Positions 35,882 through 41,923 of a stretch of 64,000 bases of DNA are shown piece after piece (within the stretch, counting starts at the first letter, position 1; each line of letters begins with the position of its first letter). A model generated the notes under the pieces. It did not search any database. It worked only from the letters and a program-made list of their open reading frames with translations, and was not told the origin of the DNA. The position numbers and the translations under genes are program-made. This DNA comes from Escherichia phage BF17: the sequence record MW822008.1. One strand, written 5' to 3'.

Positions 35882-38578
35882 ATGTCAAAGAAAATATATG
35901 GTGGCTTAGATGTCACACATAATGTGACAGTTAATGGTAAAAGAACAATTCAAGGAATAAATGAACAAGTTTTTGATTCCAACGGTAACTTGGAATTAGA
36001 TACTTATTCCAGAGATGAAGTACTAGATATAGTAAGTATGATGCCAATCTCCCATTATGGTTCACAAAACTATCTACCTGCGGGTGTTTCTGGGGATTTC
36101 AATGGTGCATCAGAAAACCAGTCACAACGTAGAAATAAAATTTTATTAGAAAACGATGGTACACTAGTACTTTTACGTAGTGGGACAAACGGTAGTGTTG
36201 AGGGATTATTTTATTCATATTTGGCTAACGCATTATCAGTTGATGACATGAGCCGTACAATTAACACTAGTCGTCAATACAAGCCTGGGTTTTTTGGTTC
36301 AAATAGAGTTGCGATTGGTTTATACAATACTGATCCAAATATTTTACTCGGTAGATATATTGATACTTCTAACAGTACTAATGGTTTGTTCATATCAATT
36401 ACCAATGGTACATTAGATGATAAATTGCATACTGGTTTTTTCGTTAACCAAGCAGATATATCACCTGAAGGTGGTATTGAATATGCTATGATGGCAGAAG
36501 ATGGTTCTATATATGTTTTTAACGTACTTAATGAAAATAACCAACTACAATTAGTTGTTGTAAAAGTTGTTTATAATATAAGCAATGGTACTTATACTGC
36601 AACTCGAATTACTGGATGGACTACTAAAACATTTTATAACACGACATATTCTGCACAAAATAATATGGTTATTACTAATCAGGTAACATCAACAAATATT
36701 GCTGATAAACCTTATGTGTATGTTCCACAAAATCTACGTGGTATTGGGATTTACATGACATCAATTGATTTATATGTTGCACAGCAGCCAGGAACGCAGA
36801 ATTTCCGCTTTAGAATGAACGGGGACGCTTGGTTTACAATGGCAACATATAATACACGTCCACAGCATAGTTACAGTTTTGTGTTCAATATGAGTACTAA
36901 ACAATGTACATTAGATGCGGGTAACGATATTGGTTCATATCAAGCACCATTAGTTATAACTAATACTGGTTCGGCATTAGTTCCTACTGGTAACGTTTTA
37001 AATAACGATCCATTGTATAACCATGCAAATGCAAGAAACATTTATAGTTCATATTTTTATTTGAATTCTGGTGAAGCTTTTTGTACTACATGTCCAAACT
37101 TAGCAGAACCATTACTTATGCAAAAAGCTAAGTTTCCTATTCAAATAGTTTATAGTATGCTGAATGTCCGTGCTGTACTTTCTACTGACTTCAAAGGTGG
37201 TATAGTTCGCCCGTCTTTTGGTTCAGCGGTTGGTTCATTTATTAATGGTGTAGAATTACTACCAGATAACAGTACTAAACAATATTCACGTGCATCAGGT
37301 AGTGGTGGATTTAGACCATCATATGCAGTTCATAAAAGTACTCCTAATTTTACATTTAAATCATTATCTTTAGGAACAATACAAGGTTATGAACCTACAG
37401 TTGAACGTGCTAATGTTGATGATAATGCAAATAATAGAATTTTTATTAGTAGTATTTCTGGGTCAACTGTCACAACCAATGGTGGTATTTTTATGGTTGG
37501 GCAACGTTATTCACAATCATTATCCTATGATAAAAACTTAAATGGCACAGGAATTATAAGCGTTACACAATCAGTACTGGACAATTTTAGAAATACTGAA
37601 TATGCCAAAGTTCTAAGTGATTGGAATTTATCAGCACAAGCATACCGTGATATGACACTATTTGTTCCACAACAAACAGACATTCCAGCTTTTGTTATGT
37701 TGAGTACAATTACTAATGATTATAGAAACTATATTAGAATTGCTGAAGTTAATGTCAATACTAGAGTTGGTAATATTACATCTATTACATTTAAGCGTTT
37801 AGTACTTGAGAATACGTATGGTGATAACTTTACACCAACTGGGAATGGTTCGATTGCATCTTCTTCTGTTGGTTTGACCATATATGATGGTGGTTCATTC
37901 TACTTCATTGGTGGTTCTGACCCATTATCACATCCAACAATAGGTAATACTGCAACTCATCAATTTAGAGCATATGTAACTAAATCAACTGCACAATTTA
38001 CAAGTTTTATAATTACTGGATCTCATGCCAGTTATGAACAAGGAAGTCAACCAGCAGCATTACCTGGTATTGGTTTTGGAATTTTTGAACCAATGGATTA
38101 CTCAAATAAAATGACATTCAAAAAATATGGAACAACGATTGCAGACTATAATAACTGGACTGCACAAGGTAGCCCAATTAACGTAGTATCCCAGGACGTT
38201 GCTCAAGGGTTTATTGTATATTTTACAGAGGAAACACCAGTTATTCTTTCAGGTAAGTCATTTTCACTACCAGTTTCAAATATTGATTTGAGAACTATTA
38301 AGTCTAATCCAGCAAATACAACATTTTATGTATATGTTAAATTGGAACAAGGATTGGCAAACTATTACATAACTACTGATGTTATTTCTGAAACAGGGAC
38401 AACTGCATATAATATTTTTTGGATAGGTACAATTCAAACTAATGCAATTCAAATCGAAACAATTAATATACAAAAACGTTCCCGTTTAGATATATTTGGT
38501 GCTTCACTTGAATCAGCAGGTTCATCGTTCCCAGTTAGCTACGGTCTACCATCACAAACAGGAACCATAAACTGGTAA
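35882..38578 (+). CDS. putative tail fiber / receptor-binding protein (paralog 1)
   Basis: 898 aa, S/T/N/G-rich; N-terminal LRSGTNGS and C-terminal SSFPVSxGxPSxTGTIxW modules shared with 38590 and 39194 genes. Confidence 0.55.
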   Translation: MSKKIYGGLDVTHNVTVNGKRTIQGINEQVFDSNGNLELDTYSRDEVLDIVSMMPISHYGSQNYLPAGVSGDFNGASENQSQRRNKILLENDGTLVLLRSGTNGSVEGLFYSYLANALSVDDMSRTINTSRQYKPGFFGSNRVAIGLYNTDPNILLGRYIDTSNSTNGLFISITNGTLDDKLHTGFFVNQADISPEGGIEYAMMAEDGSIYVFNVLNENNQLQLVVVKVVYNISNGTYTATRITGWTTKTFYNTTYSAQNNMVITNQVTSTNIADKPYVYVPQNLRGIGIYMTSIDLYVAQQPGTQNFRFRMNGDAWFTMATYNTRPQHSYSFVFNMSTKQCTLDAGNDIGSYQAPLVITNTGSALVPTGNVLNNDPLYNHANARNIYSSYFYLNSGEAFCTTCPNLAEPLLMQKAKFPIQIVYSMLNVRAVLSTDFKGGIVRPSFGSAVGSFINGVELLPDNSTKQYSRASGSGGFRPSYAVHKSTPNFTFKSLSLGTIQGYEPTVERANVDDNANNRIFISSISGSTVTTNGGIFMVGQRYSQSLSYDKNLNGTGIISVTQSVLDNFRNTEYAKVLSDWNLSAQAYRDMTLFVPQQTDIPAFVMLSTITNDYRNYIRIAEVNVNTRVGNITSITFKRLVLENTYGDNFTPTGNGSIASSSVGLTIYDGGSFYFIGGSDPLSHPTIGNTATHQFRAYVTKSTAQFTSFIITGSHASYEQGSQPAALPGIGFGIFEPMDYSNKMTFKKYGTTIADYNNWTAQGSPINVVSQDVAQGFIVYFTEETPVILSGKSFSLPVSNIDLRTIKSNPANTTFYVYVKLEQGLANYYITTDVISETGTTAYNIFWIGTIQTNAIQIETINIQKRSRLDIFGASLESAGSSFPVSYGLPSQTGTINW

Positions 38579-41923: not shown

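Follow-up and report, generated by a model that had tools for sequence, protein, structure and literature searches.

The stretch of Escherichia phage BF17 under study (sequence record MW822008.1; 64,000 nucleotides, hereafter the window) carries on its plus strand, at 35882..41923, three tandem genes with homologous products: gene A (898 amino acids), gene B-mini (195 amino acids) and gene C (909 amino acids). With a probability of about 0.6, this triplet is read here as an ancient set of three receptor-binding-like paralogs associated with the tail or baseplate, and not as recently shuffled fibres. The reading is based on the homology of the three proteins, the anatomy of their operon, the synteny and orthology across genera, the presence in virions and the folds assigned on predicted models. 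The location on the baseplate, the oligomeric state, the binding of glycans and the role of the mini-protein are what we infer.

The Rak2-like jumbo coliphages (phAPEC6, 121Q, PBECO4, G17) are considered for therapy; little is established about how they recognise hosts, and no role has been assigned to the majority of their virion proteins. The genes of the triplet, the paralogy in phage CBB and the presence in virions were already on record, and the orthologues in CBB, GAP32 and Serratia phage BF had been left with neither function nor fold. The present analysis adds a fold, sorts the members into the orthologous types A, B and C, traces where the mini-gene came from, connects the triplet with gp168 of phage SPN3US and points out a gap in the annotation of phAPEC6. 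The triplet provides concrete candidates for studies of adsorption and host range and for fitting unassigned densities of cryo-electron microscopy (cryo-EM), and its headless B member offers a natural experiment on what such proteins need in order to assemble.

Homology, operon structure and virion association

The proteins of genes A and C align over their full length with 28% identity (E = 3e-64). In both of them it is the last ~120-125 residues that the mini-protein matches, that is, gene C with E = 7e-24 (residues 77-192 of the mini-protein being 43% identical to the C-terminal module of C) and the C-terminal part of gene A with E = 1e-16. A preliminary description made from the sequence had proposed three homologous genes at this place on the basis of shared motifs. 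All of these motifs (LRSGTNGS, VSQDVAQGF.VYFT, KSNPANTTFY and SSFPVS.G.PS.TGTI.W) are found and the similarity is far beyond chance. The extent of the sharing is different from what had been described. The common C-terminal module spans about 125-130 amino acids (residues ~769-898 of gene A) and not ~60, and the mini-protein, which was thought to possess this module only, has kept both termini, as an N-terminal stretch of ~65 residues aligns with the N-terminus of gene A (E = 5e-7) and also with the N-termini of the B-type orthologues.

The centers of the two large proteins, said to differ, are indeed diverged, with roughly 14-28% identity per window of 50 amino acids (mostly 20-28%), compared with 46-48% in the conserved ends (residues 51-100 and 751-850). 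However, when the central 600 residues of A and C are compared alone they are collinear, with 22% identity over 537 amino acids (E = 5e-8), and therefore the middles are diverged homologues and not different sequences. No further copy of either large paralog exists within the window, tblastn against each Asteriusvirus genome located the family at these places only, and on inspection the N-terminus bears no resemblance to that of gp314c, the annotated tail fibre in the window.

Over the region 35000-42600 the identity is 100% with Escherichia phage vB_EcoM_phAPEC6 (MK817115), which belongs to the genus Asteriusvirus and is a jumbo myovirus (352 kb) of the Rak2-like kind. PBECO4, 121Q, G17, JP4 and others show 95-99.6% identity across the same region, with JP4 at 99.5% in the triplet. 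Gene A, the large A-type paralog (35882..38578, plus strand), is an intact open reading frame (ORF) annotated as gp323c in phAPEC6. After 11 nucleotides follows B-mini, a B-type paralog without the body (38590..39177, plus strand), preceded by an AAGGA ribosome-binding site, and after another 16 nucleotides gene C, the large C-type paralog (39194..41923, plus strand), which is annotated in G17, JP4 and PBECO4, in the last from a later start. The ATG of gene C at 39194 also carries an AAGGA ribosome-binding site and is backed by the annotations of G17 and JP4 and by the N-termini of the orthologues. The sizes first given for A and the mini-protein were right; the 939 amino acids ascribed to 39194..41923 belong to a longer ORF, which begins with a GTG at 39104 and overlaps B-mini.

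MK817115 has the same DNA with intact ORFs, but no coding sequence (CDS) is entered there for the 195- and 909-amino-acid genes. The annotation inside gene C consists of just a 37-amino-acid "gp322c" in another frame (about 41385-41498). Because of this missing CDS, the virion proteome of phAPEC6 could not have listed either B-mini or C.

The triplet follows nrdD and nrdG, the genes for anaerobic ribonucleotide reductase, a block closed by an intrinsic terminator at 35809..35827 (plus strand; stem-loop AAGCACCCGTTGGGTGCTT followed by a T run). This site is annotated in G17 and is conserved ahead of gene A in Salmonella phage 7t3, CBB and BF. Just past the terminator, 42 nucleotides before the ATG of gene A, is the T4-type late-promoter motif TATAAATA (35840..35847, plus strand). 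It was introduced as the only such motif of the window, which is true for the plus strand; the minus strand has a second copy at 20913-20920. On both strands of the AT-rich window these two copies compare with 12.8 +/- 3.5 expected, a roughly six-fold under-representation, and all 100 of 100 shuffles held at least two copies. The scarcity suggests selection against spurious late promoters and is in keeping with a functional signal.

The element [T/C]ATAAATACA is kept at -41/-42 behind the terminator in phAPEC6, G17, 7t3, CBB and Serratia phage BF, while the spacer has diverged. Thus, in five phages a TATAAATA-like element precedes the gene at a constant distance, as in a T4-type late unit. CBB has ATAAATA upstream of its structural genes and encodes a gp55-like sigma factor (PMC5259590). 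By analogy, late expression of the triplet appears well supported. At the other end a strong intrinsic terminator, also annotated in G17, is found at 41928..41951 (plus strand; 10-bp stem, then a T run). The whole is a self-contained late operon with the order terminator, T4-type late promoter, A, B-mini, C, terminator.

Similar elements occur elsewhere in the window. A second late-promoter-like element, CAATAAATAC, is located at 45264-45303, 38 nucleotides before the ATG of gp315c, a protein of 42 amino acids with 69% coverage in the virion mass spectrometry of phAPEC6. The element stands ahead of gp314c, which was detected in virions as well. A third ATAAATA lies at 26429, downstream of a PhoH-like gene.

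The products of genes A and C are low-copy virion proteins. In purified virions of phAPEC6, gp323c (98.6 kDa) was represented by 4 unique peptides with 5.6% coverage (PMC7247149). Liquid chromatography-tandem mass spectrometry of JP4 virions recovered JP4_233 (898 amino acids) and JP4_235 (909 amino acids), with 2 peptides for each of them; their abundances were 1.8e6 and 2.3e6, respectively, versus ~1e8 for the major proteins (PMC12648861 supplement). Mass spectrometry of GAP32 detected the B- and C-type homologues, and RaK2 is entered as lacking a homologue (PMC5259590 supplement S5). The earlier proposal of virion proteins under a T4-like late promoter, against which their absence from virions would have spoken, is thus upheld by gp323c, JP4_233, JP4_235 and the B and C types of GAP32. 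The 195-amino-acid protein is missing from the virion list of JP4; it yields few tryptic peptides, which are long, and it was absent from the database searched for phAPEC6.

These virion-associated proteins have no assigned location, and their genes lie outside the main tail module. They could therefore be decorations of the tail or capsid with no specific receptor role, for example, the 12 elongated densities at collar and distal tail or the proteins that anchor the "hairy" whiskers of phAPEC6 and CBB. In the cryo-EM of phAPEC6, elongated proteins at two levels of the tail, as well as fibre bases, have indeed been left unassigned (PMC7247149). On the contrary, GAP32, for which no whiskers are reported (PMC5259590), has homologues detected by mass spectrometry, and SPN3US, EL and Agricanvirus hold homologues too, with whiskers not reported for them in the cited papers. 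The abundance is low compared with capsid fibres present on every hexamer, the C-terminal module resembles specifically domains that dock to baseplates, and the SPN3US homologue was grouped with baseplate and fibre proteins. A purely decorative role seems unlikely in the light of these observations.

Predicted architecture of the proteins

The AlphaFold2 model of gene A, built on an alignment of 40 sequences, is globular and almost wholly beta, with a mean predicted local distance difference test (pLDDT) of 86 and a predicted template modelling score of 0.80. Low confidence is confined to the ends (residues 1-55 and 872-898). An elongated, repetitive fibrous fold, such as a triple beta-helix, a coiled coil or a collagen-like shaft, was looked for in the model and not found. 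The label "fiber-like", under which the genes had first been presented, does not suit a globular all-beta protein that matches beta-propellers.

In detail, four parts are distinguished in gene A. The first (residues 1-75; 36106 being the last position of the segment that begins with the gene, 35882..36106, plus strand) has one short helix at 44-52 followed by an LP.S.YG strand, with pLDDT of 31-69, and is conserved among the paralogs and kept by the mini-protein. The second is the all-beta body (residues ~85-750; 36134..38131, plus strand), which consists of about 13 four-stranded units, that is, about 54 strands between residues 86 and 750, with the motif LRSGTNGS within the first blade. Its structure matches are beta-propellers, with lectins as the top match and several of the others, at 5-12% identity, a level generic for any propeller. 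From the strand count alone, the body of the model is probably composed of two beta-propellers; an hhalign comparison of its two halves gave a probability of 0.5%, that is, no internal duplication detectable in sequence.

The third part is a beta-sandwich (residues ~765-870; 38174..38491, plus strand) which resembles the shoulder of receptor-binding proteins or the N-terminal domain of TssK. In the predicted model it is superposable on the shoulders of ORF18 of phage p2 or on the TssK N-domain. The fourth is the C-terminal tail (residues 872-898, ..GSSFPVSYGLPSQTGTINW; 38495..38575, plus strand), with pLDDT below 50 and unstructured in the monomer model. Its residues G880, G888, P890 and W898 are invariant in the 40 homologues, and the tail may be a docking or oligomerisation peptide. 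Gene C has the corresponding shoulder-like module and tail (..GSAIPASTGVPSGPGTRWK) at residues 787-909 (41552..41920, plus strand), and this is its region of similarity to the mini-protein. In the model of the mini-protein, a confident core of residues 70-160 (pLDDT 82-94) is flanked by unstructured ends, in which the most conserved motif, KVSRF.TYRPS.TQKGSSFPVSTG.P.QTGTI.W, is situated. The preliminary idea that the conserved C-terminus is an attachment module and not the receptor-binding tip fits this shoulder-like fold.

A propeller body could also belong to an enzyme carried by the virion, that is, a sialidase- or glycoside hydrolase-like depolymerase which degrades the polysaccharide of the host surface. 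The propeller matches are, as mentioned, generic, and lectins are prominent among them. Pfam scans of all three proteins gave nothing meaningful, and sequence searches of the PDB, including profile searches, gave no match. Among the 34 residues that are invariant across the 40 homologues there is no Asp or Glu, and the charged or titratable ones are R99, H183, R509 and K865. Furthermore, B lost its whole body, yet the phage kept B. An enzymatic function of the bodies is accordingly held to be improbable.

Orthology, evolution and proposed role

Three full-length paralogs follow nrdG in CBB (gp147/148/149) and in Serratia phage BF (gp141/142/143), and a large-mini-large arrangement follows it in 7t3. 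The order nrdD-nrdG-triplet is also found in G17, PBECO4 and JP4, so that the position of the triplet is conserved, and the combination of triplet, terminator and T4-like late promoter is common to Asteriusvirus, Mimasvirus and Eneladusvirus. CBB_147/148/149 and GAP32_143/144/145 (both Mimasvirus) and BF gp141/142/143 (Eneladusvirus) are direct orthologues of the triplet, with the same position, terminator and late promoter, types and architecture. The difference is that in CBB, GAP32 and BF all three members are full length (~900-920 amino acids), whereas in Asteriusvirus, 7t3 and others the middle one is the 195-amino-acid form with the termini only.

The C-terminal modules group by position in the triplet. 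Type A modules are 72-79% identical, those of type C, with CBB_149 and BF_143 as the orthologues of gene C, 59-68%, and those of type B (CBB_148 and BF_142) 75%. Since the modules group by position across genera, the triplication is older than the split of Asteriusvirus, Mimasvirus and Eneladusvirus.

The mini-proteins score best against type B in most comparisons (44-48%), and their start, MAY.I..D..A..Q..VQGK, is common with type B only. By this sequence evidence, the mini-gene is a B orthologue from which about 720 internal residues were deleted. It has a length of 195-202 amino acids in all relatives, down to 41-46% identity, and a ratio of nonsynonymous to synonymous divergence (dN/dS) of 0.10 versus G17. 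A decaying remnant was considered as well and rejected, because length and sequence are conserved to ~41% identity at this dN/dS.

The three proteins evolve roughly twice as fast as the neighboring enzymes. In the comparison with 7t3, NrdD is 74.5% and NrdG 79% identical, versus 59% for A, 55% for the mini-protein and 46% for C. Between phAPEC6 and G17 the divergence is concentrated in two sharply bounded islands, that is, in gene A (35900-38300; synonymous divergence, dS, 0.51) and in a 0.9-kb segment of gene C (39500-40400; dS 0.23), and the flanking genes are 99-100% identical with dS near 0. In both islands dN/dS is about 0.04, and the exchanged A allele is 96% identical in protein. This points to allele replacement via recombination under purifying selection and not to the import of foreign domains.

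The same data bear on the view that these are classical tail fibres whose receptor-binding middles were swapped between conserved ends by domain shuffling, as had been suggested for this DNA. The ends are indeed more conserved than the middles, and the divergence hot spots in A and C do show recombinational exchange of alleles. On the other hand, the middles are collinear and homologous, the body is modelled as one continuous and confident fold with nothing fibrous or repetitive in it, orthology within the A, B and C lineages is stable from genus to genus, and the low dN/dS of an exchanged allele so similar to its counterpart corresponds to allele replacement. Shuffling is thus very improbable, and the pattern is that of an ancient triplication with faster divergence of the bodies.

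In the favored reading, that of an ancient receptor-binding-like triad, a full-length member would consist of a short N-segment, a large globular body of propeller type, a beta-sandwich of ~100 residues and a conserved C-tail of ~27-35 residues, the last probably ordered only within the assembly. The conserved ends, that is, N-segment, shoulder-like sandwich and C-tail, would attach the proteins to the tail, most likely at the baseplate's periphery. The faster-evolving propeller bodies would be turned towards the host surface, where they would bind glycans or, with less likelihood, cleave them. B would have lost its body of ~720 residues and kept its two assembly ends, and probably still fills its slot as a headless subunit.

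Several points weigh against such a role. The strong purifying selection and the stable orthology are unlike what is seen in rapidly switching host-range determinants, and the operon is placed among genes of nucleotide metabolism, distant from the main structural module. The mass-spectrometric signals are weak (2-4 peptides), the mini-protein was never detected in virions, and the list of JP4 also holds likely contaminants, for example, ClpP- and PhoH-like proteins. The placement at the baseplate is something we infer. Finally, the shoulder is N-terminal in the known receptor-binding proteins and in TssK and C-terminal here (~765-870 of 898).

Two features next to the operon were recorded. Directly downstream of its terminator, at 41991-43591, there are three tandem small paralogs (188, 173 and 169 amino acids) with a common region "..D.DR..(I/L)(I/L)..KY.LSK" (pairwise E = 8e-16 and 3e-4), preceded by a near-consensus promoter of sigma-70 type, TTGACG-17-TATAAT, at 41940-41968. 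This block, to which no function is assigned, is probably an early or middle unit. Upstream, between nrdD and nrdG, an ORF of 110 amino acids and DUF4326 type (35031-35363) overlaps the start of nrdG by 29 nucleotides; its homologue in CBB is located elsewhere, about 10 kb downstream.

The wider family and comparison with known systems

Genes A and C match phrog_3573 over the full length of the profile (E = 1.7e-274 and 7.7e-267, respectively) and the mini-protein matches phrog_26864 (E = 4.4e-115). The matching PHROG families (3573, 7449 and 26864) are without functional annotation. By tblastn the family is found in 170 phage records, all of jumbo phages, namely the Rak2-like phages, Agricanvirus (gp18/19/20), EL (ORF114/115) and many chimalliviruses, and the matches are annotated as "virion structural", "minor tail" or "tail fiber" proteins. 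Foldseek against BFVD recovered the same architecture in the same phage groups. A profile search of 1.84 billion representatives gave 564 clusters at 50% identity, including forms of 1150 and of 1700-1850 amino acids with N-terminal extensions. In the literature on receptor-binding proteins of Asteriusvirus and on cryo-EM of Rak2-like tails, nothing specific to the triplet genes was found.

SEGD1_173 and SEGD1_172 of Enterobacteria phage SEGD1 contain the N-region, body and shoulder module of the family, and together (5.2 kb, SEGD1 locus 2126-7308) they equal gp168 of SPN3US. The two look like one gene split by annotation or by a frameshift, as the family profile runs from the end of SEGD1_173 (positions 57-109) straight into SEGD1_172 (109-872). 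In the Agricanvirus Erwinia phage Deimos-Minion, three tandem genes with the C-terminal module are present at 613-8924. The Agricanvirus set, with gp18 as a short form of 420 amino acids labelled "membrane protein" and gp19 and gp20 of about 1150 amino acids with N-terminal extensions, parallels the large-mini-large arrangement.

CBB_147-149 had already been listed as paralogs, and CBB_148/149 as structural from the mass spectrometry of GAP32 (PMC5259590). In SPN3US, gp168 is a low-abundance tail protein which is absent from tailless particles; it belongs to Paralog family C, with three members (gp168/169/170) of similar abundance, and was reported as similar to gp131 of phiKZ (PMC5694885; PMC5105663). 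It differs from the triplet proteins in an extra N-terminal region of ~550 residues and ~300 additional C-terminal residues. In phiKZ, gp131 together with gp132-135, its paralogs, makes up hetero-oligomeric fibre bases at the baseplate's periphery, and gp131 ends in a seven-bladed propeller (PMC13250141). SPN3US gp168 and phiKZ gp131-gp135 are like the triplet in that each belongs to a jumbo-phage set of tandem paralogs whose products are tail proteins of low abundance. The likeness of phiKZ extends to the propeller head of gp131, to an anchoring end common to the paralogs and to a mini member, gp132, of 110 amino acids. In phiKZ, however, the common anchoring part is N-terminal and the C-termini differ, whereas both ends are conserved in the triplet. 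Direct membership in the gp131 family was rejected, because neither the hidden Markov model of the family nor tblastn gave a match in the gp127-gp206 region of phiKZ (128-215 kb, including gp131-135); the only link is indirect, via SPN3US gp168.

These precedents lead to a tentative refinement of the favored reading, namely that A, B and C join through their shoulder-like domains and tails in one pseudo-symmetric 1:1:1 heterotrimer instead of forming three homotrimers, the complex of Asteriusvirus then having two heads. Exactly three shoulder-bearing tandem genes occur in Asteriusvirus, Mimasvirus, Eneladusvirus and Agricanvirus (gp18/gp19/gp20), and each type has long been kept as a separate orthologous lineage. 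The abundances of A and C in JP4 are alike (1.8e6 vs 2.3e6), as are those of the three family C proteins of SPN3US, the mini-protein retains only assembly parts, and the paralogs gp131, gp133, gp134 and gp135 of phiKZ are a precedent for hetero-oligomeric fibre bases (PMC13250141). On the contrary, the known shoulder domains are homotrimers, the profile detects just ORF114 and ORF115 in phage EL, and the mini-protein was not seen in virions. A more elaborate form of the proposal is doubtful: the three paralogs would build a single asymmetric heterotrimeric receptor-binding complex in which one subunit of Asteriusvirus is a headless adaptor, possibly because N-segment and C-terminal sandwich make up a whole docking domain with the propeller body inserted into it, and six complexes would give 12 large bodies per ring, perhaps the 12 unassigned elongated densities at the two tail levels of phAPEC6.

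The favored reading, an ancient triad of receptor-binding-like proteins, can be compared with known systems in body and in docking domain. Propeller heads are found in the receptor-binding protein of Staphylococcus aureus phage phi11, in phiKZ gp131, and in lectins and sialidases; the triplet body is much larger (~670 residues) and, compared with propeller lectins and sialidases, has no recognisable catalytic or sugar-binding motif. The C-terminal module resembles the shoulder of the receptor-binding proteins of the lactococcal phages p2 and 1358, SPP1 gp22 and the N-terminal domain of TssK, with an identity of only about 10% and no relationship at the level of sequence. In comparison with these proteins the triplet has an additional conserved C-terminal tail. 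It is through this shoulder domain that the receptor-binding proteins of siphophages and TssK of the type VI secretion system dock as trimers onto the baseplate.

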